In this document: positions 1,976-63,756 of the stretch, in pieces
Numbering within the stretch: the stretch's first letter is position 1
How the letters are laid out: each line of letters begins with the position of its first letter
Assembly (NCBI GenBank): GCA_951406725.2
Contig: OX597826.1
Location: 33,666,001 to 33,730,000 of the forward strand
From: Octopus vulgaris
Lineage: Eukaryota
Direction of reading: 5' to 3'
Length of the DNA: 64,000 bases
Made by a program: the position numbers and the translations under genes
The notes under the pieces: model-generated
What the model was told of the DNA's origin: nothing
Database searches by the model: none
The model's input: the letters and a program-made list of their open reading frames with translations, nothing else

Positions 1976-2944
1976 ATTCTTACTCTTGTTATGATTCTCT
2001 ACAATTGTGGTCACTTGGTTTTTCTATCAAGTGGAAATTTCGATAGTGCGACCTTTAGGTTTATGACCAGAGAAAGAGATAGAGGGGAGATGAGGAGGGA
2101 GGAGGAGCTAGGATGAGGGGGAATGATGTGATATAAACTGAAAGGGACGGAGTTAAAATACAAGAGAGATGAAGGGAAAGAGGATGAGTAAAAGATAAGA
2201 AACTTTCAAATGAAGGTGAGAAAAGAAGACTGATAATGGCAATAGTTGAGAAATGGGAGAATATTTGGCACCAACTGAAAGAGGAGGAGGAGGAGGAGGT
2301 AACTGTGAATGTCTTTATAAATCAACCATCCTTCCATCATTAACTTGTGACATGTTTGTATACAGTTGATATAAGATGGTAGCGTTGTCAAAAAAAAAAA
2401 AAAACTAATTTTAATGAAATAATACAGATGACAGCAAAATGTTTAGAAAAATTCTTGACGTCAAGATTGAGTTTACGTTAGACTTAACTCTCTCACTCCT
2501 TCATATTCTCCTTTCTCTCTCTCTCTCTTGCTTCTGTTTATGTTCTCTTCTTCCACGTCTATTTCTCTCCCTTCATTGCCATCATTCATCTTCACTTTCT
2601 CTCTCTTCTCTCAGTCAATCATCTTTTGTATACAAACACACACACACACACATCCCCTCTCGTACTACGTCTTAATTTACCATTCCGTTGGAACTAAAGG
2701 TAGAAGACTTTCAGAATATCCCGAGAAACTAATGAAGATTAAGCTAAGCCCCTGCCTGTTAATTTGTTGTTAGATTTGTCTTTGTTCTGGATATTTACTT
2801 GAGACCACCCATCAAGTATTCGGCCTTGCTGTTTTGTGTTTTTACTCACAAGAATGACAAATACGTGGCTTTAAATAAACTGATATATCGCCAGCCCATA
2901 GCCCACTTTATGTCTGATGAAACTATGGAGCTTATACCATAGAC

Positions 2945-3320
2945 TTGTTCAAATTCCGCCGAGGTCGACTTTGCCTTTCATCCTTTCGGGGTCGATAAAT
3001 TAAGTACCCGTTGAACACTGTGGATCGATGTAATCGGTTTATTCTCACCCCACCCCACCACCATCATCTCGAAACCGCTGTCCTTGTGTCAAAATCCGAA
3101 ACCCTTGTTATCTGCTTAATTAATGTGGTGAACTGGTAGGATGGTTAGCACAGTGCTTAGTGGATCATCTTTATGTCCTGCGTTCAAATTCCGTCGAGGT
3201 CGACTTTGCCTTTGATACTGTCGGGGTTGATAAAATAAATGCCAGTTAAGCAGTGGGGCCGATCTAATTGATTTATTTCCTTCCTCAAAATTGCCGGCTT
3301 TGTGCCAAAATAAGAAAGGG
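2945..3320 (+). mobile_element. Two SINE family B copies
   Basis: gttcaaattccgccgaggtcgactttgcctttcatcctttcggggtcgataaattaagtacc and a second diverged copy. Confidence 0.8.
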
Positions 3321-8128: not shown

Positions 8129-8555
8129 AATATATCTCTGAACAAGGTATAAACAGCAGCTGCACGACAATGTGAAGTATATTTTCCACTTAAACGTGGC
8201 CAACCACTAAGGGTGGATGCTACTGTAGCTTGATGCTCCAGGAGAACATCTTCTCCAGCTGGCTATTGACACACTTTCTGTGCCCTATCAGTATTTGCAA
8301 AGGGAAGCCATTCTTCTCATCGTCGACCTGACGTGATACGCATGGACCCGGGTTTCTGAGTATTTACCCGTCGTCAGCGCACGACTATCACCGGTCTTCG
8401 ATGCGAAGGGGTCCCAATGCAAAACTATATATCCTTTTTCCAGTGACGAAAAGTCACTGATCTCGCAAATGTGTAAACAAGCAATAATAAATTTCTGAAC
8501 GAGATATAAACAGTAGCTGCACGACAATGTGAAGTATATTTGCCACTTATATGTG
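8129..8555 (-). mobile_element. Retrozyme-like insertion: 357-bp HHR monomer with 62-bp terminal redundancy and 15-bp TSD
   Basis: TSD tattcaagagataat at 8114-8128 and 8556-8570; direct repeats 8137-8198 and 8494-8555 (about 6 mismatches); internal HHR motif. Confidence 0.7.
8339..8383 (-). ncRNA. Type I hammerhead ribozyme motif
   Basis: cgtgcg CTGACGA cgggt-aaat-actca GAAA cccggg TC catgcg; intact core, palindromic stem III (ACCCGGGT), GUC triplet; stems partly decayed. Confidence 0.7.
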
Positions 8556-19393: not shown

Positions 19394-19779
19394 ATAACAC
19401 ATGAGAGAAAGAGAAAGAAAATGGTATTCATGAGATTCTTTAATAATCACTATGAACATTTCAACCCCTTATGCATTGGTCATTCACAGGTGAGATTCAG
19501 GTGCAAATTATTGCAGCACATCATTTGCTACAGATGTGCCTAATCAGGTGACTTACGAAATGGTACTTCATTCTTTAATCTTCATTTCATTTATTTCAAT
19601 TGGAATACTTTTGGTACCTGAGAAATTTTTGATGCGACACATTTGCACCAAATGATGCACCGTAACTATTAATATAGCATCTCACCTGCAAGTGACCAAT
19701 AGATGATGGATTGAAATGATTATAGTGATTAAAAAACAACCTCGTGAATTCCATTTCTTTTCTCTTTCTCTCATGTTAT
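19394..19779. mobile_element. Foldback/MITE-like element with ~150-bp imperfect terminal inverted repeats
   Basis: catgagagaaagagaaagaaaatgg...attggtcattcacaggtgagat pairs with atctcacctgcaagtgaccaat...ccatttcttttctctttctctcatg. Confidence 0.65.
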
Positions 19780-20027: not shown

Positions 20028-20219
20028 TACACACACACACATAACCTCATCATAATGATCATCATCATTTAAAGTCTGTTGTCCATGCTGGCATGGGTTG
20101 GATGGTTTAACCAATGCTAGTAAGCAGAGGGGCTGCGCAGGCTCCAGACTGATTTGGCATGGTTTCTACAGTTTATAAGTGTGTGTATATATTTAAATAT
20201 ATATATATATATATATATC

Positions 20220-20367
20220 TGTGGATTTCCACCTCGGTATCCGAAACTCGGAGTTTTATCATGGCTACCGAATAATTGTCACATATTACATTTATAGATA
20301 AATTCCTCTATTTACATAATATCGAGGTCTCTTTCTTTCTTTTGTCATCTTACCATTTTTACCAATA
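20220..20367 (+). mobile_element. Solo 3' pseudo-LTR fragment related to the 24925-26637 PLE
   Basis: gtggatttccacctcggtatccgaaactcggagttttatc...taccatttttaccaata is a diverged match to the reverse complement of 24925-25067. Confidence 0.75.
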
Positions 20368-20794: not shown

Positions 20795-21012
20795 CTATTG
20801 TTATATTTCGGATTGGTCATTTTGCTAGTTTAGCCAATAAAAACACACGCACTATATATTTGGTGTTACTTTGCTTCAGTGTTATTTATTTTTTACATTA
20901 ATCTTAATCTTATTTCAGCCAGAGTTCTTTCATCACACTCCTGTGACCGCATCAGTGGTCCTTTGTTTTCTTCTTTCTTATTTGTGTCTCTCCTTACTAA
21001 CCGTTAGCCATT
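20795..21012 (-). mobile_element. HHR-bearing pseudo-LTR-like fragment (HHR 20919-20958)
   Basis: cca CTGATGC g-gtcaca-ggag-tgtgat GAAA gaac TC tgg; same family at 49345-49630. Confidence 0.6.
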
Positions 21013-22018: not shown

Positions 22019-22892
22019 CTCTCCTATATACACATATAAACAATCATCTATACATTCAGACATTCGGTCTTTTATATCTCATTCTTGATATATAGTTTCA
22101 CTTCATGCTGGTGATGGTTACGGTAGGCGTGGTGGTGGTGGTTCTAATTCTGATAGTGATGTTGGTGGCTGTGGCTGTGGTACTGATGATGGTGCTTGTC
22201 ATGGTGGAGGTGACGGCGTGTAGCTTGTAGGGATTGGAAATTGTTAAAAAATTATTTCTTCAAAAAAGAAGAGAAGTATAAATTATTTAGTTTTTCCCAG
22301 CAGGGTGACAATAAAGAAAGCAAAGAAGAACTAGCATAGCAGAAGCTATAACAATAAATAAATCTAAATAAATTCTTCGTACATCTCCATTTTATCTCTG
22401 AGTACTAAAAGCTGTCAGCTATATCAAAATTTTCCTATTTCTTCATTTATTGTTATTGTTGTCTGCTACATAGTTGTCCTTTTTTTTTCTTTTCTGCCTT
22501 TTTTTTTTACTGCATAAGTTTTTTTTATATATTTCGTTTTTAATCAACTGAATTTTAGTTCTTGTTGAGATTTGATATCAGGGTCAAACGTGGGAATGTA
22601 GCAAAATATGCCACGGTTGGAAACAGAACAGGAAAAAATAGTTTGTGTAATGTTTATTAAGTAAATGTTTATGTGTAGTCTTAGAAAGTAAATTTGTTTT
22701 CTATGTATAAGACGAAATACTAAACATACACAGCAATGGCATCGATTGTTCATAGATATACTAACATTATAGAAACAGAATAAAAAATTGCACAAAGAAT
22801 TTTCATGAAATAGACGTTTTTGTATAGTCTTAAGAATTGCCATTTGTTTTGCATGCATAAGACGAGATAATAAACTTATACATCACTTACAG

Positions 22893-23115
22893 TTCTATAT
22901 TTAAGTGATGAGGAATTATGTGCATTATTTACATTTGACGGATATTTGTCCTCATCTTGTTTGTTGTTAACACAACGTTTCGGCTGATATACCCTCCAGC
23001 CTTCATCAGGAATGAGAACCTAGGTTCGAAATTTCCCCCAAGACACCTGATGAAGGCTGGAGGGCATATCAGCAAACAAGATGAGAACAAATATCCTTCA
23101 AATGTAAATAATGTA
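22893..23115. mobile_element. Head-to-head inverted copy of the HHR tail of the tRNA/HHR SINE
   Basis: 22925-23010 is the reverse complement of 23046-23115 (right arm has a short deletion); minus arm reads CTGATGA a ggctg..cagcc GAAA cg TT gtgtt. Confidence 0.75.
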
Positions 23116-24854: not shown

Positions 24855-25025
24855 TAATAATAAATTCCCTTATATTCCATCTTCTGTCTTTCTTATGCTA
24901 TATATATATATATATATATATATGTATTGATAAAACGGTAAGATAACAAAAGAAAGAAAGAGACCTCAATATTATGTAAATAGAGGAAATTTATCTATAC
25001 AATATGTTACATTACTCGGTAGTCA

Positions 25026-25088
25026 AGATAAAACTCTGAGTTTCAGATGCCGAAGTGGAAATCCACAACACCATCTCTTCGGTTATCT
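25026..25088 (-). ncRNA. HHR-like motif in the PLE pseudo-LTR
   Basis: agataa CCGAAGA gatg...catc t GAAA ctcagag TT ttatct; non-canonical CCGA core. Confidence 0.55.
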
Positions 25089-25283
25089 GGCTATTTGAAA
25101 ACGTTATGAAAAAATACCGTTAAAAATGAAGGGAAATTACTCTGTTATAACTCTGCTTTGCCTGCGTACTTATACATCGCTCGCATTTTTCGTCATAAAA
25201 ATTATATAAAAATACATAAAAAATATATAAAAATATATAAAAATATATAAAATCTTCTTGGGACATAACACAGAAAGCATGTT

Positions 25284-26374
25284 CTATCCGTTTTCTTTAG
25301 GGGACCAAAAACGTAACAGAAATTTAGTCACATGTGGGCATGATCCGAAAAGTTCTGTCCTTGTATTTAGACATGTGGTAGGGTCTAAGCTGCTTTTCCA
25401 GATAAGCCATCTCTCCATGTCGCATAAACCGCACCTTCCGCTGCCGTTAGTATAGGGCTTACATCTGGCCAAAATCTTCCATTGTATGTTATAATCGACA
25501 CCTTTATCTCTTAAAGACCAAATATGATTGGATAATTGTGTCGCTTTTCTTTGTTCCAGTGCCTAAAGCTCAAAGTGTGGTTATTGAACCTGGCCTTGAA
25601 ATTACCCTCTGTCAGGCCCACGTATTTCTTCGTCGAAACGGTGTCTTTAGTGGTTATAGAGTTTACGGTAGCCTCATATATGATGGTCTTGGACATGCAA
25701 GCTCCATTTAGCGGGCACAATTCTTTATTCCTGCATGAACAGCTGTTTTCTTCTTGTGTTTTTTGTATGTTATGATTGATTATGTTTTTAAAATTGGTAG
25801 TTGAACTAAAACTAATTTTTAAATTGTGTCTATTGAAGAGTTTCCTATAAGCATGGTTAACTGGAAAATGTCTATCTATCAGTGCTAGGAAATATTTACC
25901 TATATTGAAGGCCACCTCGGGTGAGTAAGGGGGCGTAAACCAGATGACCTTCCTATTTCTATTATTCCTTTTCTTTATTGTTGGGCTGGTGATAGGTGTA
26001 TATTTTATTTTTTCGCTAAAACCACTATCTTTTAAAGCTTTATTATAAACTGGGGCAACGCTATTGAAGATGTCCTCATTAGATGAGAGGCTAGAAATCC
26101 TCTTACTAATATTTTTAACTAAATTTTTGAATACTATAGGGGGATGGCATGAACCTACATTAATATAACTTAGTCTATCATTGGGCTTCCTATAAGGCTT
26201 ATAAATATTATTATTAAGATCTAAGGAAACGTCTAAGAAATTGACAACCGTCAGGTTAGTGTCTATAGTTATACTAAGTCCGAAGTGTTTCATTAACTGG
26301 ATAATATCCTTCCTAAAACGATCTTGTGCTGGTCCATTTGTATTAGCTGTTAAGGCGAGGGCATCATCTTTGTA
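25284..26374 (-). CDS. PLE reverse transcriptase (from YKDD) plus GIY-YIG endonuclease; one frameshift near 25546
   Basis: YKDDAL...VNFLDVSLDL...YKPYRKPN...SCHPP; linker CSCRNKELCPLNGAC (CxCx5C); IIY...YVG-LTE..FKARFNNH; one added base joins to KATQLSNHIW...CGLCDME...CLNTRTEL..SCPH. Confidence 0.88.
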
Positions 26375-26540
26375 GATTTTATATATTTTTATATATTTTT
26401 ATATATTTTTTATGTATTTTTATATAATTTTTATGACGAAAAATGCGAGCGATGTATAAGTACGCAGGCAAAGCAGAGTTATAACAGAGTAATTTCCCTT
26501 CATTTTTAACGGTATTTTTTCATAACGTTTTCAAATAGCC

Positions 26541-26603
26541 AGATAACCGAAGAGATGGTGTTGTGGATTTCCACTTCGGCATCTGAAACTCAGAGTTTTA
26601 TCT
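26541..26603 (+). ncRNA. HHR-like motif in the inverted pseudo-LTR copy
   Basis: Same sequence as 25026-25088 in the opposite orientation. Confidence 0.55.
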
Positions 26604-26672
26604 TGACTACCGAGTAATGTAACATATTGTATAGATATATATATATATGTAGATATATATACATACATACAT

Positions 26673-26713
<41 letters not shown>

Positions 26714-26831
26714 CATATGCATACACACAGACACACATACACACTCATACATATATATAAATATATATATATATACATATACACATACATGTATATACAT
26801 ATATATATATTTATAGATATAGATATATAGA

Positions 26832-29800
26832 TATAATTTCAACAATTGAGGGTAAAATTAATTAATTATTAATCAATTTCACCAAGTGTTCAGTATGCAA
26901 AGGGACCATTTAAGGCGAATTCAAATTATTACATTATATAAAAGGGCTTAGTAAAATAAATTACTTTGCCGCATACTGAACTCATTAGAAATAGCAGCTA
27001 AAAAACTTTTTTAAAACTATTTCTAATACTTAAAGACAACCTCTCTCATATAGTGCTTGCTCAACTCAACTCACGAAAGTTTGGGGGTAAATACATCAAA
27101 AAATCAAATGCAAAGGTTATTTGAGAACGTACGTTTCAAGATTAGTCAACACGACACTTCTATCATCAGCTCAGAAACTCCTTGGTTTGGATTTGAAAAC
27201 ACTGAAAGTGAGAGCATACCCTTTCGGCTTCTCATCGCTTTCGAAGATCTGCTCGTAACTAACAGTGCCAACAAACTCAAATATGCAAGCGAAGAATTTC
27301 TGTTCTCCCCTTTCCACCAGCGTGGGTTAAAATCAGCAAACACTATGCTTATTTCGGTAAAATCCGAAGCATTAATTAGAGGGAGATTAATTATAATTTC
27401 AACAATTGAGGGTAAAATTAATTAATTATTAATCAATTTCACCAAGTGTTCAGTATGCAAAGGGACCATTTAAGGCGAATTCAAATTATTACATTATATA
27501 AAAGGGCTTAGTAAAATAAATTACTTTGCCGCATACTGAACTCATTAGAAATAGCAGCTAAAAAACTTTTTAAAACTATTTCTAATACTTAAAGACAACC
27601 TCTCTCATATAGTGCTTGCTCAACTCAACTCACGAAAGTTTGGGGGTAAATACATCAAAAAATCAAATGCAAAGGTTATTTGAGAACGTACGTTTCAAGA
27701 TTAGTCAACACGACACTTCTATCATCAGCTCAGAAACTCCTTGGTTTGGATTTGAAAACACTGAAAGTGAGAGCATACCCTTTTGGCTTCTCATCGCTTT
27801 CGAAGATCTGCTCGTAACTAACAGTGCCAACAAACTCAAATATGCAAGCGAAGAATTTCTGTTCTCCCCTTTCCACCAGCGTGGGTTAAAATCAGCAAAC
27901 ACTATGCTTATTTCGGTAAAATCCGAAGCATTAATTAGAGGAGATTAATTATAATTTCAACAATTGAGGGTAAAATTAATTAATTATTAATCAATTTCAC
28001 CAAGTGTTCAGTATGCAAAGGGACCATTTAAGGCGAATTCAAATTATTACATTATATAAAAGGGCTTAGTAAAATAAATTACTTTGCCGCATACTGAACT
28101 CATTAGAAATAGCAGCTAAAAAACTTTTTAAAACTATTTCTAATACTTAAAGACAACCTCTCTCATATAGTGCTTGCTCAACTCAACTCACGAAAGTTTG
28201 GGGGTAAATACATCAAAATATCAAATGCAAAGGTTATTTGAGAACGTACGTTTCAAGATTAGTCAACACGACACTTCTATCATCAGCTCAGAAACTCCTT
28301 GGTTTGGATTTGAAAACACTGAAAGTGAGAGCATACCCTTTCGGCTTCTCATCGCTTTCGAAGATCTGCTCGTAACTAACAGTGCCAACAAACTCAAATA
28401 TGCAAGCGAAGAATTTCTGTTCTCCCCTTTCCACCAGCGTGGGTTAAAATCAGCAAACACTATGCTTATTTCGGTAAAATCCGAAGCATTAATTAGAGGG
28501 AGATTAATTATAATTTCAACAATTGAGGGTAAAATTAATTAATTATTAATCAATTTCACCAAGTGTTCAGTATGCAAAGGGACCATTTAAGGCGAATTCA
28601 AATTATTACATTATATAAAAGGGCTTAGTAAAATAAATTACTTTGCCGCATACTGAACTCATTAGAAATAGCAGCTAAAAAACTTTTTTAAAACTATTTC
28701 TAATACTTAAAGACAACCTCTCTCATATAGTGCTTGCTCAACTCAACTCACGAAAGTTTGGGGGTAAATACATCAAAAAATCAAATGCAAAGGTTATTTG
28801 AGAACGTACGTTTCAAGATTAGTCAACACGACACTTCTATCATCAGCTCAGAAACTCCTTGGTTTGGATTTGAAAACACTGAAAGTGAGAGCATACCCTT
28901 TTGGCTTCTCATCGCTTTCGAAGATCTGCTCGTAACTAACAGTGCCAACAAACTCAAATATGCAAGCGAAGAATTTCTGTTCTCCCCTTTCCACCAGCGT
29001 GGGTTAAAATCAGCAAACACTATGCTTATTTCGGTAAAATCCGAAGCATTAATTAGAGGGAGATTAATTATAATTTCAACAATTGAGGGTAAAATTAATT
29101 AATTATTAATCAATTTCACCAAGTGTTCAGTATGCAAAGGGACCATTTAAGGCGAATTCAAATTATTACATTATATAAAAGGGCTTAGTAAAATAAATTA
29201 CTTTGCCGCATACTGAACTCATTAGAAATAGCAGCTAAAAAACTTTTTTAAAACTATTTCTAATACTTAAAGACAACCTCTCTCATATAGTGCTTGCTCA
29301 ACTCAACTCACGAAAGTTTGGGGGTAAATACATCAAAATATCAAATGCAAAGGTTATTTGAGAACGTACGTTTCAAGATTAGTCAACACGACACTTCTAT
29401 CATCAGCTCAGAAACTCCTTGGTTTGGATTTGAAAACACTGAAAGTGAGAGCATACCCTTTCGGCTTCTCATCGCTTTCGAAGATCTGCTCGTAACTAAC
29501 AGTGCCAACAAACTCAAATATGCAAGCGAAGAATTTCTGTTCTCCCCTTTCCACCAGCGTGGGTTAAAATCAGCAAACACTATGCTTATTTCGGTAAAAT
29601 CCGAAGCATTAATTAGAGGGAGATTAATTATAATTTCAACAATTGAGGGTAAAATTAATTAATTATTAATCAATTTCACCAAGTGTTCAGTATGCAAAGG
29701 GACCATTTAAGGCGAATTCAAATTATTACATTATATAAAAGGGCTTAGTAAAATAAATTACTTTGCCGCATACTGAACTCATTAGAAATAGCAGCTAAAA

Positions 29801-32312
29801 AACTTTTTAAAACTATTTCTAATACTTAAAGACAACCTCTCTCATATAGTGCTTGCTCAACTCAACTCACGAAAGTTTGGGGGTAAATACATCAAAAAAT
29901 CAAATGCAAAGGTTATTTGAGAACGTACGTTTCAAGATTAGTCAACACGACACTTCTATCATCAGCTCAGAAACTCCTTGGTTTGGATTTGAAAACACTG
30001 AAAGTGAGAGCATACCCTTTTGGCTTCTCATCGCTTTCGAAGATCTGCTCGTAACTAACAGTGCCAACAAACTCAAATATGCAAGCGAAGAATTTCTGTT
30101 CTCCCCTTTCCACCAGCGTGGGTTAAAATCAGCAAACACTATGCTTATTTCGGTAAAATCCGAAGCATTAATTAGAGGGAGATTAATTATAATTTCAACA
30201 ATTGAGGGTAAAATTAATTAATTATTAATCAATTTCACCAAGTGTTCAGTATGCAAAGGGACCATTTAAGGCGAATTCAAATTATTACATTATATAAAAG
30301 GGCTTAGTAAAATAAATTACTTTGCCGCATACTGAACTCATTAGAAATAGCAGCTAAAAAACTTTTTTAAAACTATTTCTAATACTTAAAGACAACCTCT
30401 CTCATATAGTGCTTGCTCAACTCAACTCACGAAAGTTTGGGGGTAAATACATCAAAATATCAAATGCAAAGGTTATTTGAGAACGTACGTTTCAAGATTA
30501 GTCAACACGACACTTCTATCATCAGCTCAGAAACTCCTTGGTTTGGATTTGAAAACACTGAAAGTGAGAGCATACCCTTTCGGCTTCTCATCGCTTTCGA
30601 AGATCTGCTCGTAACTAACAGTGCCAACAAACTCAAATATGCAAGCGAAGAATTTCTGTTCTCCCCTTTCCACCAGCGTGGGTTAAAATCAGCAAACACT
30701 ATGCTTATTTCGGTAAAATCCGAAGCATTAATTAGAGGGAGATTAATTATAATTTCAACAATTGAGGGTAAAATTAATTAATTATTAATCAATTTCACCA
30801 AGTGTTCAGTATGCAAAGGGACCATTTAAGGCGAATTCAAATTATTACATTATATAAAAGGGCTTAGTAAAATAAATTACTTTGCCGCATACTGAACTCA
30901 TTAGAAATAGCAGCTAAAAAACTTTTTAAAACTATTTCTAATACTTAAAGACAACCTCTCTCATATAGTGCTTGCTCAACTCAACTCACGAAAGTTTGGG
31001 GGTAAATACATCAAAAAATCAAATGCAAAGGTTATTTGAGAACGTACGTTTCAAGATTAGTCAACACGACACTTCTATCATCAGCTCAGAAACTCCTTGG
31101 TTTGGATTTGAAAACACTGAAAGTGAGAGCATACCCTTTCGGCTTCTCATCGCTTTCGAAGATCTGCTCGTAACTAACAGTGCCAACAAACTCAAATATG
31201 CAAGCGAAGAATTTCTGTTCTCCCCTTTCCACCAGCGTGGGTTAAAATCAGCAAACACTATGCTTATTTCGGTAAAATCCGAAGCATTAATTAGAGGGAG
31301 ATTAATTATAATTTCAACAATTGAGGGTAAAATTAATTAATTATTAATCAATTTCACCAAGTGTTCAGTATGCAAAGGGACCATTTAAGGCGAATTCAAA
31401 TTATTACATTATATAAAAGGGCTTAGTAAAATAAATTACTTTGCCGCATACTGAACTCATTAGAAATAGCAGCTAAAAAACTTTTTTAAAACTATTTCTA
31501 ATACTTAAAGACAACCTCTCTCATATAGTGCTTGCTCAACTCAACTCACGAAAGTTTGGGGGTAAATACATCAAAAAATCAAATGCAAAGGTTATTTGAG
31601 AACGTACGTTTCAAGATTAGTCAACACGACACTTCTATCATCAGCTCAGAAACTCCTTGGTTTGGATTTGAAAACACTGAAAGTGAGAGCATACCCTTTC
31701 GGCTTCTCATCGCTTTCGAAGATCTGCTCGTAACTAACAGTGCCAACAAACTCAAATATGCAAGCGAAGAATTTCTGTTCTCCCCTTTCCACCAGCGTGG
31801 GTTAAAATCAGCAAACACTATGCTTATTTCGGTAAAATCCGAAGCATTAATTAGAGGGAGATTAATTATAATTTCAACAATTGAGGGTAAAATTAATTAA
31901 TTATTAATCAATTTCACCAAGTGTTCAGTATGCAAAGGGACCATTTAAGGCGAATTCAAATTATTACATTATATAAAAGGGCTTAGTAAAATAAATTACT
32001 TTGCCGCATACTGAACTCATTAGAAATAACAGCTAAAAAACTTTTTTAAAACTATTTCTAATACTTAAAGACAACCTCTCTCATATAGTGCTTGCTCAAC
32101 TCAACTCACGAAAGTTTGGGGGTAAATACATCAAAAAATCAAATGCAAAGGTTATTTGAGAACGTACGTTTCAAGATTAGTCAACACGACACTTCTATCA
32201 TCAGCTCAGAAACTCCTTGGTTTGGATTTGAAAACACTGAAAGTGAGAGCATACCCTTTCGGCTTCTCATCGCTTTCGAAGATCTGCTCGTAACTAACAG
32301 TGCCAACAAACT
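26832..32312 (-). repeat. Tandem array of ~9.8 near-identical 558-560-bp units, one HHR per unit (retrozyme-like)
   Basis: Anchor positions 27057, 27616, 28174, 28734, 29294, 29853, 30413, 30972, 31532, 32092; units differ only at a few positions. Confidence 0.95.
27122..27173 (-). ncRNA. Type I HHR in array unit 1 (repeated in every unit)
   Basis: tgag CTGATGA taga..gtc-gtgtt-gac..tctt GAAA cgtacg TT ctca; canonical core, palindromic AACGTACGTT stem III. Confidence 0.7.
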
Positions 32313-32313
32313 A

Positions 32314-32946
32314 TTTTTAGCTGCTATTTCTAATGAGTTCAGTATGCGGCAAAGTAATTTATTTTACTAAGCCCTTTTATATAATGTAATAATTTGAATT
32401 CGCCTTAAATGGTCCCTTTGCATACTGAACACTTGGTGAAATTGATTAATAATTAATTAATTTTACCCTCAATTGTTGAAATTATAATTAATCTCCCTCT
32501 AATTAATGCTTCGGATTTTACCGAAATAAGCATAGTGTTTGCTGATTTTAACCCACGCTGGTGGAAAGGGGAGAACAGAAATTCTTCGCTTGCATATTTG
32601 AGTTTGTTGGCACTGTTAGTTACGAGCAGATCTTCGAAAGCGATGAGAAGCCGAAAGGGTATGCTCTCACTTTCAGTGTTTTCAAATCCAAACCAAGGAG
32701 TTTCTGAGCTGATGATAGAAGTGTCGTGTTGACTAATCTTGAAACGTACGTTCTCAAATAACCTTTGCATTTGATTTTTTGATGTATTTACCCCCAAACT
32801 TTCGTGAGTTGAGTTGAGCAAGCACTATATGAGAGAGGTTGTCTTTAAGTATTAGAAATAGTTTTAAAAAAGTTTTTTAGCTGCTATTTCTAATGAGTTC
32901 AGTATGCGGCAAAGTAATTTATTTTACTAAGCCCTTTTATATAATG
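32314..32946 (+). repeat. Inverted ~1.13-unit segment of the 560-bp array (HHR at 32705-32756)
   Basis: Reverse complement of the unit; abrupt junction ...caacaaact-a-tttttagctgct... Confidence 0.95.
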
Positions 32947-33004
32947 ATATATAGATATATATATATAGATATATATACACATAAACACGCACACACACAC
33001 ACAA

Positions 33005-47260: not shown

Positions 47261-47522
47261 AGTCACTAGTTGGAGTTTGCTTCCAGGCAGTGACCTGAAT
47301 GATAATAATAATAATAATAATAATACTAACACTGATATACTCTCCAGCCTTCATTAGGAATGAGAACCCAGGTTCGAAATTACCCCAAGACACCTGATTA
47401 AGGCTGGAGGGTATATCAGCCGAAACATTGTGTTAACAACAAACAAGATGAGGACAAATATCCGTCAAATGTAAATAATGTAAATAATGTACATAATTTC
47501 TCATCTCTTAAATATAGAATTA
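47161..47522. mobile_element. Rearranged (multiply inverted) tRNA/HHR SINE; HHR at about 47389-47444 (+)
   Basis: Segments alternate -/+/-/+; gacac CTGATTA aggctg..cagcc GAAA ca TT gtgtt. Confidence 0.7.
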
Positions 47523-49338: not shown

Positions 49339-49344
49339 GGGGAT

Positions 49345-49630
49345 GATGTATTTGGGGATGATCATGTTGCTAGGTTAGCCAATAAAATCACACGCACTAT
49401 ATATTTGGTGACAAAATGGCTGATCATTAGTAAGGAAAGACACACAAAAACACAAAAAAGAAAGAAGAAAGCAAAGGACCATTGATGAGGTCACAGAAGT
49501 GTGACGAAAAACTCTGGCTGAAATACGATTAACTTAGAATAAAGCTGAAGCAAGTGAACACCAAATATATAGTGTGTGTGTCTTCACTGGATAAACTGGC
49601 AACATGAACATCCCCGAATACAACAATATC
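49345..49630 (+). mobile_element. HHR-bearing element with inverted 5' end (HHR 49479-49517)
   Basis: cca TTGATGA g-gtcaca-gaag-tgtgac GAAA aac TC tgg; 49345-49410 is an inverted copy of about 49558-49625. Confidence 0.65.
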
Positions 49631-49710
49631 TGTCTCAACACATGAATTCACATCAAGAATCTTGCAAAACGAATATATAAACGTATATATATATACATAT
49701 ATATATAAAC

Positions 49711-49935
49711 AATTGCAACGTGGAAGGTGCTGCAGCACAAAGCTTTGTCAGTGAACAGGTCGCGGTCTCAAAGCGACGAAAATATTTTGATAAATTAAAT
49801 TTAAATGTTGAAGTGAATCTAACGGTTTTATGTGTTTCTTAAATGGCTTATAAATACCTTCCATGCTGCAATTATTTTCGTTCCAGCACACGATCTCAGA
49901 TCAAGTCACTTGCTATGCAAGTACATCTCCGTAAA
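49711..49935 (+). mobile_element. HHR-bearing element with short inverted 5' end (degenerate HHR 49744-49794)
   Basis: tttgtca GTGAACA g-gtcgc..gcgac GAAA atat TT tgataaa; aattgcaacgtggaaggt is inverted to accttccatgctgcaatt. Confidence 0.5.
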
Positions 49936-50626: not shown

Positions 50627-50992
50627 TGGTGGTCCAGCATGGCTGCAGTCAAAGGACTGAAGCAAGTAAAAGAATAAAAGAATAGAAGATTAAAAAATTG
50701 TATTTGGTTTGCAAGATTCTTGATGTGAATTTGTGTGTTGAAACAAATCTTGTGTCTTGGGAAGGTAATTTGGCCAATAATAATAACAACATATACACAG
50801 GGCCAATGTCACTTTTTGTAAGTGACATTGACCTAATTAATTAAATATCTAATCAACTAATTAATCAATCATTTGTTTAATCTGATGGTTAAACAATAAA
50901 TTGGATGTTTGTGTGTCAAAGTCCTTTGTTACTATATATGAATAGAAATGAAAGGAAGGAATTTGGCTTACAGAAACTGTGTTGAAGCCCAT

Positions 50993-51040
<48 letters not shown>

Positions 51041-51137
51041 TATGTGGGCACAGAACATCATGAAATATGTACACTCAAAATACGAGAATAGAAACAGCCA
51101 ACAACTGATGAAGAGTCGTATATATATATATATATTT

Positions 51138-51650
51138 AAATAAATGGAGTTTCATGCAGGTATAATTCAAATACTTTTACTTCCGACACATGTTTTGAAG
51201 ATTTCACTGATATTATTCAAAAGAATAATATTATTTTTTCTAAAAATCCCTCATAAACACGGTTATAGAGTGTACATACCGATGTAAACATTGGCAAAAA
51301 CACACCTTTAGTTCATATAAGTTATCTCTATCATTATATATAATTTATACTTTAATTTTCTTTTATATTTAACATTCACTAAAAATATCCCTCCTCTTTC
51401 TATAGGCTACTTCTGATGTTATATCATATAACGTTTTTCAAACAATATTAATAGCATTCAGTAAATCACTATAAATATCCATCATTTTCTGTTAAAATAT
51501 CTTATTTATGAGTTTCATTTCTTCACTTCCCTGAAGAGAAGATCACATTGCTTTATACCATTTATTCTTTCGAATATCAGTGAAATCTTCGAAACATATG
51601 TCAGAAGTAAAGATATTTGAATTGTACCTGCGTTAAACTCCATTTATTTA
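51138..51650 (+). mobile_element. HHR-bearing element with inverted 5' end
   Basis: 51138-51228 is an imperfect inverted repeat of 51562-51650; flanked by (TA)n. Confidence 0.65.
51525..51608 (+). ncRNA. Type I hammerhead ribozyme
   Basis: acttcc CTGAAGA gaagat...atcttc GAAA catatg TC agaagt; canonical core, perfect 6-bp stem II, palindromic stem III, GUC; the inverted copy keeps ggaagt, which restores stem I. Confidence 0.75.
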
Positions 51651-51805
51651 TTTTTATATTATACAAGAAATTCCACATAAACCCGAATTTTCTATCTTTA
51701 AAAACACTGAGTTACAGACTCTTTATTTGTGTGATTTTTTGCTACCCTGGTAACTATTTATCTATTTTTTTCCATGTTAATTGTTAACAAGGGAAAAATA
51801 CACTC

Positions 51806-59741: not shown

Positions 59742-62717
59742 ACCACAGAGCTCACAATGGACCACCGACCATACCTCCCAAGAATCAAAATAAACAAAAT
59801 AACAACACCTATTATAAACAGCATAAACCTAGCCGTCACTGAACTGATAGCCACTGAATCAAAAAAAGTGATATCACTGAGCTAAATAACCTAATATACG
59901 CAGCAGCCACTGCAGCCACAAAAGAAGCTGGATACTCACCCAAACCCGCCCAAACAGGAGTACCACCACCCAAACAAACCCTGTGGATAAATAACATCCA
60001 AAGCAAAATAAAAAAAAATAGAAAAGACCTGTCGATTCTTAATGAAATCAGCAAAGAATCAACGCTACTGAGCAACAAAAAGAGAACAAAAATACTCCGC
60101 AAATATAACATCACAGAAATGGATTTGCCTGAAATAAAAGAAAAGCTGAAGCAAGATATCCTTGCCAAAGCACAAAGGATCCGCCGGTACAAGAAACGCC
60201 AACGCTTCTTTGAAGAAAACAAAAAGTTCAACTCCAACCCCAAAAAGTTCTACCAAGAACTGGGCAAAAATAAAATAGAAGTCACTGCAGCACCAACGGC
60301 AGAAGAATTGGAAGAATTCTGGGGAGAAATATGGTCGGCGAACGAACCACCAAAAAAAGGAGTATCAAAATAACAAACTCGGCATCTGAACAAATTTGGA
60401 CCCCCATAACAACTGAAGAGGTCACCCAGGCACTGCAAAGACTAAGCAACTGGAAGGCACCTGGGCATGACAAGATCCCCAACTTCTGGTTGAAATATCT
60501 AACAGGAATGCACAAAAAGCTGGCTGAAAACTTTAACAACGTACTAGCAGAGCCAGAGACAATGCCTGAATGGCTCACAAAGGGGAAAACCATCTTAATT
60601 CCCAAATCAAATGAAACAGAAAAACCAGAAAACTACAGACCAATAACCTGCCTCCCTACTATGTTCAAGGCATTTACTGCAGTGATATCACAAAGGCTGA
60701 ACAAGCACCTGGACGAAAACAAACTGTTCCCAGAAGAGCAGAAAGGATTCCGCAAAGGCTCATATGGCTGTAAAGATCAACTAATGATTAATAAAGCCAT
60801 AACTGAAGAAAGCCACAGAAAGAAGAAAGGCCTCAGTATGGCCTGGATTGACTACAAAAAGGCGTTTGATAGCATCCCCCACACATGGATCCTCGAAACA
60901 CTAGCCATTAACAAAGTAGCACCAACAATCATAACATTCATAGAGCACTCTATGAATAAATGGCAAACAGTCCTACACCTCCAAACAAAAGAGGGACTCA
61001 TGAAAACCAAAGACATCCCCATTAGAAGAGGAATATTCCAGGGAGATACGCTCTCTCCACTCCTTTTCTGCTTGGCACTGTCACCTCTATCTGATATGCT
61101 AAATAGAACTGGATGCGGATATAAATGTTACGGCAAAATGATCAGCCACCTTTTATATATGGATGACCTAAAACTATACGCTGCAAATGACAAACAGCTG
61201 GAAACACTATTAAAGACAGTTCATGGATTTACCAAAGAAATAGATATGAAATTTGGATTAGAAAAATGCGCCAAAGTAACCATGAAAAGAGGAAAACTAG
61301 TTAAGAGTAACAACATCACACTAGATGAAGCAAATGAAATAAAAGAATTAGACCAAAGCCAAACTTACAAATACTTAGGAATCCATGAACTAGATAAGAC
61401 ACAACACACACAAATGAAAGAGAAAATAAAAAAAGAATATTATAGACGAGTTAGATCAATACTAAACACAGAGCTCAATGCTAAAAACAAGATAATAGGT
61501 ATCAACACTTTAGCTGTCCCAGTTATAAGTTACAGCTACAATATCCTTAACTGGATACGAAATGAACTGACCAAAATAGACAGGAAAACAAGAAAAATAA
61601 TGACAGGATCTAGGATGCATCACCCAAAATCTGACATAGAAAGACTATATATACAACGTATAGAAGGTGGTAGAGGCCTTATACAGCTGGAAAACTACTA
61701 TAAAATAACCACCATAGGACTGCAAAAATATCTACTTCAGAAGGAAGGAAAACTGATCCAGATAGCAGCAAAACACGAGCAAAACAAAAAACTGTTCTCA
61801 GTATTTAAGGAAGCTGACAAATACAAACAAGAAATCATACCACCTAATAAACATGAAGAAGAAGAAGAAGAAGATGAAGAAACAACAAAAGCTATAAAAA
61901 AAATGAAATCCAAACTAAAAATAGAACAGCAACGAACCATGATAAAACGATGGCAAGAAAAGCCCCTTCATGGTAAATACTGGACTAAACTAAACGCAAA
62001 AGAAATAGACAAAGAAAAATCCCAGCAATGGTTGAGAAGCTCAGGACTCAAAGCAGAAACAGAGGGATTTTTAATTGCAGCACAAGACCAAAGCCTCCCC
62101 ACCAGAAATTACCAAAAACATGTAATGAAACGAAATATTACAAGTAACTGCAGAATATGTGCAGATGGACAAGAAACAATAAATCATATTATCTCTAGCT
62201 GCCCAGTCCTGGCTAAGAAGGAATATATTCACAGACATGACAGAGTTGGAACCTACATACATTGGAAGCTATGCCAACATTATGGAATAACAACAGAAAA
62301 AAGATGGTATAGGCACACACCAGAAAAGGTCACAGAAAACGAGAAAGCAACCATACTCTGGGATATGCCGATACACACAGATAGAGAAATTACGGCCAAC
62401 AGACCAGATATAGTTGTCAGAGACCATGAAGAAAAAAATGCTTTCTAATTGATGTATCAGTACCAGCAGATGACAACGTGTCTCTAAAAGAAATGGAGAA
62501 ACTCTCAAAATACAAAGACCTGGAAATAGAGGTAACTAGAATGTGGAATCTGAAAACAGAAACAATTCCTATCATAGTAGGTGCATTAGGCATGATAAAA
62601 AAATATTCAGACAAATACATAACAAAAACACCAGGACTTACAAACACATATAACATACAGAAAATTGCACTACTAGGCACTGCACACATCCTACGCAGAA
62701 CACTTTCCATACAATAA
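59742..62717 (+). CDS. RT/RLE polyprotein (~990 codons) with three frameshifts at A7 runs
   Basis: KAPGHD, YRPITCL, WIDYKKAFDS, GIFQGDTLSP, YMDDLK, CRICADGQETINHIISSC, RHD, NRPDIV/FLIDVSVP, EKLSKY, IIVGALG. Confidence 0.9.
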
Positions 62718-62817
62718 CCGTCAGAGCATCACAACAAATCACAGCACATACCCAAGGCACACAGAGCTGCGCTCGGTAGTGAAGTGAAAGCACGCTATAA
62801 AAATAAAAATAAAACTA

Positions 62818-62820
<3 letters not shown>
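59742..62820 (+). mobile_element. 5'-truncated R4/Dong-clade RLE non-LTR retrotransposon inserted in (AAT)n
   Basis: RT, CCHC and PD-(D/E)xK-type endonuclease at the C-terminus; ~100-bp 3' UTR; (AAT)n on both sides, as known for TAA-targeting Dong elements. Confidence 0.92.
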
Positions 62821-63310: not shown

Positions 63311-63328
63311 AATAATAATAATAATAAT

Positions 63329-63756
63329 CCGAACGTGGTCGATGCCAGTGCTGCCCCGACTGGCTTCTGTGTCGGTGGCACATAAAAAGCACTGTCCGAA
63401 CGTGGCCGATGCCAGCGCTGCCTCGACTGGCTCCAGTGCCGGTGGCACATAAAAAGCATCATCCAAACGTGGCCGTTGCCAGCGCCGCTTTGGCTGGCTT
63501 CCGTGCTGGTGGCACGTAAAAAGCTCCAACCGATCGTGGCCGATGCCGGACCCCCCTGGCACCTGTGCAGGTGGCACGTAAAAAGCACCCACTACACTTG
63601 CAGAGTGGTTGGCATTAGGAAGGGCATCTAGCTGTAGAAACTCTGCCAGATCAGACTGGAGCCTGGTGCAGCCCCTGGCTTCCCAGACCCCGGTCGAACC
63701 GTCCAACCCATGCTAGCACGGAAAACGGATGTTAAACGATGATGATGATGATGATG
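63329..63756 (+). mobile_element. RTE-type 3' UTR with four 67-bp tandem units and (GAT)n tail
   Basis: Units start at 63329, 63396, 63463 and 63530 (ccgaacgtggccgatgccag...ggtggcacgtaaaaagca); tail shared with 50300-50550. Confidence 0.75.

Follow-up and report, generated by a model that had tools for sequence, protein, structure and literature searches.

How non-coding hammerhead ribozyme (HHR) repeats, or retrozymes, spread through animal genomes is still debated. At issue are which retroelement moves them and whether reverse transcription has any part in forming their arrays, as opposed to local DNA amplification alone. Mobilisation of animal retrozymes by Penelope-like elements (PLEs) has already been proposed (PMC7229834, PMC7761336), and the same idea has been argued from co-occurrence and pseudo-long terminal repeat (pseudo-LTR) homology (Li, Clavereau, Pollet 2026, 10.64898/2026.07.22.740005), the two lines on which the debate has so far rested. 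Both questions are raised by a locus of Octopus vulgaris. In a stretch of 64,000 nucleotides (assembly GCA_951406725.2, contig OX597826.1, positions 33,666,001 to 33,730,000 of the forward strand; 'the window' below, numbered from its first letter), a broken PLE (24925–26637) and a tandem array of non-coding HHR units (26833–32946) lie side by side in a (TA)n tract. Was the array put there by PLE machinery? A PLE-type insertion of this non-coding array is well supported, because its inverted arm, tail and own target duplication match the published PLE signature. It is likely that a PLE reverse transcriptase (RT) and endonuclease inserted the array in trans, by internal priming at two sites on uncleaved or circular RNA and head-to-head joining, with later amplification of a dimer. 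What is new is the PLE signature on a multimeric HHR array; the layout and the PLE–retrozyme hypothesis are both already in print.

Two insertions with PLE anatomy

The main copy of the array (26833–32312, minus strand) comprises 9.8 non-coding units of 558–560 bp, with 34% GC and one HHR motif per unit. Unit starts run from 26833 to 31868; nine units are full, the tenth is broken at 32312, and all joints between units fall in one register. A single base separates this copy from an inverted one at the head-to-head junction (32313), where unit position 27277 is joined to 27004. The 633-bp arm that follows (32314–32946, plus strand; 1.13 units) is the reverse complement of 26932–27564 at 633 of 633 positions (blastn). 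The PLE has the same plan. Its main copy (24925–26373, minus strand) breaks off abruptly at the 5′ end and continues as a 264-bp plus-strand arm (26374–26637), identical to the reverse complement of 24992–25255 over 264 of 264 positions (blastn). Neither arm reaches the main 3′ end, the one of the PLE stopping 67 bp and that of the array 100 bp before it, and a tail is present at the main end only (24925–24991 in the PLE, by blastn, and 26833–26931 in the array, both minus strand). Between the two insertions lie 195 bp of TA/CA microsatellite (26638–26832). Strand, break points, inverted copies and spacer all agree with a preliminary description of the locus; one-sided tails, target duplications and the dimer periodicity discussed below were absent from it.

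Each element is flanked by its own direct repeat. The PLE lies between copies of 17 bp at 24910–24926 and 26635–26651, of which up to 5 bp also fit the element. The array lies between copies of 14 bp at 26822–26835 and 32946–32959, of which up to 4 bp do so. Both duplications include a G that interrupts the TA run. In the window's other TA tracts, their cores find a match at 57 of 2536 and 20 of 2584 positions, respectively. Cross-comparison of the left PLE repeat with the right array repeat yields only 7 bp of plain TA. Because each element has a target duplication around it, we recognise two insertions, in each of which main copy and arm arrived in one event. The preliminary description had read the side-by-side geometry as structural evidence in itself. 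The layout is real, but adjacency counts for little, since each element inserted independently into the same type of target.

An inverted 5′-truncated copy and a one-sided tail of 30–40 bp constitute the published signature of PLEs (Craig 2021, PMC8557442). Endonuclease-bearing PLEs (PMC8557442; PMC11167929) share with the window's insertions a 5′-truncated main copy, an adjacent inverted 5′-truncated copy, a one-sided tail, an AT-rich or microsatellite target, and ends away from the HHR cleavage site. For a Poseidon PLE in vitro, both strands are cleaved and extended, and two internal start sites bound the tail; HHR cleavage is dispensable and a dimer is predicted (Frangieh 2024, PMC11167929). 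The layout in the window agrees with this internal priming at two sites and from both strands.

The inversions could in principle have formed after insertion, at the DNA level, by fold-back or template switching at AT-rich palindromes, the array then being an ordinary satellite. We consider this very improbable. Although a 10-bp inverted repeat (26987–27027) lies at the array junction site, and other joints in contigs of the unit family fall at 27003 and 27013, a single target duplication encloses main copy and arm. The arm, moreover, copies the far 3′ end rather than the sequence beside the break, and at one site it has G where the adjacent unit 10 has A. Seven HHR-family loci of the window carry such an arm, and neither its long interspersed nuclear element (LINE) nor the inspected pairs of short ones (SINEs) do.

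The ribozyme unit and its template

An HHR-like motif occurs on the minus strand in ten of ten units and on the plus strand in the arm. The units' HHRs are of type I; their cores are intact, stem III is self-complementary and the cleavage site is GUU. In unit 1 (27120–27175, minus strand) the core is canonical, U10.1–U11.1 closes stem II, and cleavage is predicted after 27126. A motif scan returned eight matches on the collapsed window against zero to two in 20 shuffles, and an Rfam scan of the window gave no HHR at the gathering score. Folded as a circle, the sense unit reaches −153 kcal/mol versus −114 ± 5 in 60 shuffles (z −7.6); local folds of the HHR regions are no better than shuffles (z +1.2 to −1.8). 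ARAGORN found no tRNA in the window or in four loci.

Measured from the predicted cleavage site, the two array ends are 195 and 295 nt further 3′, and the arm spans more than one unit; a self-cleaved linear monomer therefore cannot have served as the template, which was presumably uncleaved RNA or a circle.

A broken neighbour of the Hydra clade

The neighbouring PLE is 5′-truncated at the RT YxDD motif. Its coding remnant (25284–26373, minus strand) holds the RT C-terminus, a CxCx5C linker and a GIY-YIG region with one frameshift near 25550, and the reading frame 25511–26373 has 54 homologs of 508–750 aa (39–53% identity). The linker between RT and endonuclease reads CSCRNKELC (25741–25715). 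The GIY-YIG endonuclease is C-terminal and aligns with the homologs, although its Pfam match (E 0.069) does not reach the cut-off; its CxxC and CxH motifs sit in the second frame, and no CCHH motif was seen by eye. RWK and DKT motifs are each present in eight of eight aligned homologs, and the matching N-terminal part is lost from the window PLE. The linker and the RWK/DKT motifs define the Hydra clade, and the broken element at 24925–26373 is therefore placed there, an assignment drawn from motifs. It also shows a 3′ HHR motif, TA flanks and a target duplication, as Hydra elements do. Nearly all Hydra-clade families insert in (TA)n (Craig 2021, PMC8557442), so the (TA)n preference raised in the preliminary description is already published; Naiads also target (TA)n in Octopus.

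Counted by eye, the first 100 residues of the PLE are about 70% identical to Hydra-1_Obim (Craig 2021 supplement); taken with the microsatellite load, this would fit an Octopus host. The PLE and Hydra-1_Obim have in common the CxCx5C linker, C-terminal GIY-YIG domain, CxxC/CxH motifs, HHR and (TA)n target; the window PLE differs in being truncated and frameshifted, in its decayed HHR core and in forming a separate family. Its type I HHR-like motif (25026–25088, minus strand; U4 changed to C, predicted cleavage after 25032) is held by both the 3′ untranslated region and its inverted arm, and the PLE ends lie 40 and 107 nt from it. Five nucleotides behind the short end stands a covariant hairpin, CCTC-N15-GAGG-TCT (24961–24986, minus strand). 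It is the top window match of a model built from 36 instances at other loci, at a rough E-value of 0.095, and corresponds to the first of two hairpins of Hydra-related elements. A second Hydra PLE 3′ stub (20219–20366, plus strand), 87% identical, shares the same long end; it has (TA)n on both sides and no arm.

Twin hairpins in Hydra-related loci

For comparison, 78 Hydra-related metagenome loci were taken from the best 80 of 187 stretches; viral contigs were also searched and held no PLE relative. An HHR match occurs in 41 of the 78 loci. U10.1–U11.1, the pair that closes stem II in the array, does so in 26 of 42 distinct HHRs from these loci. Published families agree: U–U closes stem II in 14 of 25 Hydra families versus none of six of Chlamys/PLE-X (Craig 2021 File S2, PMC8557442; counted by eye). 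In other PLE HHRs, G10.1–C11.1 has been termed highly conserved, U–U being a known rare variant.

In the Hydra-related loci a hairpin, GCTC-N8-28-GAGC-ACT, occurs twice 3′ of the HHR. The first lies 38–53 nt from the HHR in 22 of 24 first copies and the second at 94–134 nt (13 second copies). Since the instances had been picked by their pairing, the 100% pairing in the hairpin alignment was circular and was discarded; with the 3′ half used as anchor instead, the complementary arm is found in 37 of 41 cases versus 2.9 expected. Eighteen (TA)n runs fall within 330 nt of an HHR motif, five of them at 31–37 nt, four at 109–115 nt and nine elsewhere. In three cases (L009, and both the PLE and the non-coding unit of L048), the TA-ended copy halts 3 nt before the hairpin of the continuing copy. 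The twin GCTC...GAGCACT hairpins stand between the HHR and the ATG of Hydra-related PLEs in a dozen loci (L001, L002, L009, L010, L011, L018, L019, L037, L040, L057, L058, L062), and many of them have a 2-nt 3′ bulge above a second stem. The twin hairpin is visible in published Hydra consensi; the main text of Craig 2021 gives no description of it, with no mention of a hairpin or stem-loop (PMC8557442). By eye, the 5′ region of Hydra-1_Obim has no such hairpin. A 12-nt match between the array unit and the 5′ end of that element, seen by eye, lies away from the ends and was dismissed as chance.

Locus L048, from another animal, mirrors the window: next to a Hydra-related PLE and a (TA)n run stands a non-coding HHR tandem of 281 bp. 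This tandem (2637–2988, minus strand) shares one (TA)n run with the PLE, retains the Hydra hairpin and stops 3 nt short of it; A-box- and B-box-like stretches were seen in it by eye, with no ARAGORN match. In two further loci (L018 711–904, L046 432–576), longer Hydra-related copies carry at their 5′ ends short head-to-head arms that lie in (TA)n, 50–105 bp before the ATG. Any inverted repeat at all was found in only ten of the 78 loci, which are too short and fragmentary for an estimate of arm frequency.

Other hammerhead loci in the window

Eleven HHR-family loci were found in the window, and an abutting head-to-head arm is present in seven: the PLE, the array, and the loci at 22893, 47330, 49345, 49711 and 51138. 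The preliminary description had ascribed the same 5′ inversion to the four small elements at 22893, 49345, 49711 and 51138. Arms are indeed present at three (78/83, 56/67 and 86/98 identical positions at 22893, 49345 and 51138); at 49711 the arm is weak (16/18), with no equally good match in about 2000 random windows. The likeness is incomplete in other respects, the 22893 element lying outside (TA)n and the HHR motifs at 22893 and 49345 being partly decayed.

These elements fall into four families. Family A (22890–23115) is two-armed, with a 13-bp target duplication in ordinary, non-repeat sequence; its copies at 23010 and 47356 show the same inversion junction with a 3–4-nt overlap. Because the 22893 junction is found again at 47356, some arms may be inherited or recurrent. 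Family B (49340–49683, plus strand) is two-armed, with a decayed HHR and a tail of about 50 bp, and both its ends are each seen twice, the short end again at 20796 and the long end at 50701. Family C (51128–51655, plus strand), also two-armed, has its HHR motif at 51531 and an undefined right end. Family D (49709–49934, plus strand) has the 18-bp arm, a tail of about 60 bp and a 13-bp, mostly TA duplication; in its HHR motif (49751–49790) the C3–G8 pair is swapped to G3–C8. In families B and C, as at the 20219 stub, the target duplication is either absent or made up of TA alone. Eleven of 16 ends lie near (TA)4+ against 8% background, a figure that is partly circular, some ends having been placed where TA begins. 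An isolated HHR-like motif at 8345–8383 (minus strand; stems 5/5/3, GUC site) has neither arm nor TA flank. Opposite-strand dual minimal HHRs of Schistosoma, 100–700 bp apart and read as truncated PLEs, resemble the small elements (Cervera and de la Pena 2014, PMC4209133); they are not multimeric, and in the available section of that paper their ends, tails and target duplications are undescribed.

The window also contains a 5′-truncated LINE (59743–62820; RVT_1, zf-RVT-like) between (TAA)n tracts, which finishes in (TAA)n/(AAC)n and has no arm. Could a LINE of this kind, present with its RT in the same window, have inserted the array through twin priming? Twin priming inverts an upstream stretch without duplicating it. 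Both arms here repeat the 3′ end, and of all explanations weighed here we hold this one to be the least probable. The inspected inverted SINE pairs are tail to tail or split by unique DNA, with no abutting 3′-end arm. Elsewhere lie an old inverted pair (19400–19776; 72–82% identity, 83–180-bp spacer), MITE-like and without an HHR motif, and a GC-rich tandem of a SINE-like segment (63327–63547; 67 bp × 3.3).

The unit family in sequencing runs

Twenty sequencing runs contain the array unit; they belong to 11 studies and bear five organism labels, and none is listed as RNA. Contigs from four runs describe a diverse unit family, 85–100% alike; such contigs drop rare variants and may stem from other individuals. 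Among the 40 of 64 variable sites shown, HHR positions 7 and 10.1 change and none falls in the invariant core. Opposite-strand joints among other unit copies occur in two of the four runs and a tandem joint in one; run X1 has two joints of unstated kind.

Set against this diversity, and against the 87% identity of the other PLE stub, the inverted arms of the PLE and the array are 100% identical, which speaks for the insertion preferred here. The array locus is young. In each of the four runs only a small minority carries the window alleles at 27037, 27056 and 27092, and the array is therefore a rare young subfamily.

An assembly artefact, either a fold-back read at 32313 or a mis-resolved tandem, has only a slim chance of explaining the junction or the copy number. 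The arm is no mirror about the break: it is offset by 273 nt, has an internal end, and is followed by the target duplication and unique DNA. What speaks for an artefact is that homopolymer length differs among array units and that the window's 27277–27004 joint at 32313 is absent from the joints listed for all four runs, a point that counts against the reading preferred here as well.

Relation to known systems

Metazoan non-LTR retrozymes (PMC7229834; 10.64898/2026.07.22.740005) share with the array head-to-tail non-coding units, one type I HHR in each, GC below 45%, a highly self-paired fold and a proposed dependence on PLEs. At 560 bp the unit exceeds the 170–400 nt of Cervera and de la Pena 2020 (PMC7229834) and lies within the 51–972 bp of Li 2026. 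The array differs in its PLE-type short stem I, palindromic stem III and U–U closing of stem II. Insertion anatomy is untreated in the available text of the retrozyme papers (PMC7229834; 10.64898/2026.07.22.740005), and the text parts of Li 2026, supplements aside, make no mention of a tail, junction or insertion site.

Non-autonomous PLEs with head-to-tail copies are also known. Those of Chlamys, such as MRC1 (Craig 2021), resemble the array as non-coding partners of PLEs with multicopy head-to-tail insertions. Elements of the MRC1 type generally share 3′ sequence with an autonomous family and mostly have no HHR, whereas the array does contain one, and no match between it and its neighbour was detected. 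In the literature searched, which excluded subscription papers and Repbase/Dfam, there was no description of an HHR array with arm, tail and target duplication, nor of a twin Hydra hairpin.

Weighing insertion in trans

Several observations weigh against insertion in trans by a Hydra-type PLE. Similarity between the PLE and the array unit does not go beyond that of shuffled sequence, with between 71 and 166 shuffles out of 200 scoring as high in four local alignments, as the preliminary description had already sensed in finding no obvious common sequence. The Hydra hairpin is found at neither array end, nor in the tails of the small elements; the nearest array candidate is a near match, with three of four pairs, 12 nt behind the short end. 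The stem II comparison covered only Hydra and Chlamys/PLE-X. The window's tails, at 67 and 100 bp, exceed the published 30–40 bp (PMC8557442), and there is one array insertion only. The neighbouring PLE is itself broken. A good fold is found for the antisense strand of the unit as well (z −5.6), whereas six controls range from +0.8 to −2.7. The preliminary description had opposed inversions to LINE-type ends; opposite-strand joints do recur in other copies and the window's LINE and SINE pairs have no arm, yet four of the 11 HHR-family loci (20219, 48965, 20796, 8377) lack one too. Finally, units 2–3, 4–5 and 6–7 are a higher-order dimer repeated three times (27393–30748, minus strand), marked by two single-nucleotide differences that units 1 and 8–10 and the arm do not carry. 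This periodicity points to local amplification or a linear multimeric donor, and therefore not to a single pass round one monomer circle.

The same dimer pattern lends something to an alternative in which an unseen autonomous PLE has the unit as its pseudo-LTR and the array is a product in cis, formed of stacked 3′ ends and then local tandem amplification. In Xenopus, 24 of 57 retrozyme families match known repeats, and 21 of 22 matched are PLEs, at their termini (Li 2026, 10.64898/2026.07.22.740005). This origin seems to us unlikely for the array, whose unit joints are in a single register and whose arm extends past one full unit. No trace of a coding region was found in the unit, either (the best tblastn match to PLE homologs had E 0.024), and frameshift indels are common across its family. 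A 123-codon plus-strand frame of the unit was rejected as a gene, a similar frame occurring in eight of 500 shuffles and no homolog being credible; its single match, P0055, is a tandem-repeat protein aligned through ten summed weak stretches, and was judged spurious.

What remains of the preliminary description's central proposal is the PLE-type insertion, seen in arm, tail and own duplication; action in trans is likely rather than proven. The driver is probably, at roughly even chances, a Hydra-like lineage. The neighbour's own family is not demonstrably the driver, because the array has no Hydra-end hairpin and shares no sequence with it; what the array has in common with Hydra PLEs at large is the U–U type of HHR alone.

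A candidate mechanism

For insertion in trans as preferred here, the features of the locus suggest the following course. A PLE protein, probably a dimer, would nick both strands of the (TA)n tract 10–17 nt apart. Each nick would then prime cDNA synthesis at one of two internal RNA start sites, TA-rich spots separated by 100 nt in the array and by 67 nt in the PLE; in Hydra PLEs each start site may be set by the GCTC...GAGCACT hairpin just 3′ of it. Both cDNAs would pass the predicted cleavage site, on a template that may have been an uncleaved multimer or a ligated circle. The two truncated cDNAs would then be joined at their 5′ ends, with at most slight homology between them. The two-unit block may have been triplicated later in place, or may already have been so in a linear donor transcript.

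More speculatively, internal priming might be what enables PLE RTs to copy circular retrozyme RNAs, which have no ends. A Hydra-type dimer would dock at two structural signals on a 560-nt ribozyme circle, prime from both nicked (TA)n strands and roll round it, giving a multimer and a head-to-head arm. In Hydra PLEs these signals would be the twin hairpins, a portable cassette that non-coding HHR units, such as that of L048, keep in order to hitch-hike. We offer this as a tentative idea.

Implications

A young array that has kept its arm, its tail and its target duplication intact supplies evidence at the level of a single insertion, and with it a census recipe for any long-read genome. The two Hydra ends, linked to two conserved hairpins, provide a candidate RNA signal open to mutation in the in vitro assay already available for PLEs.

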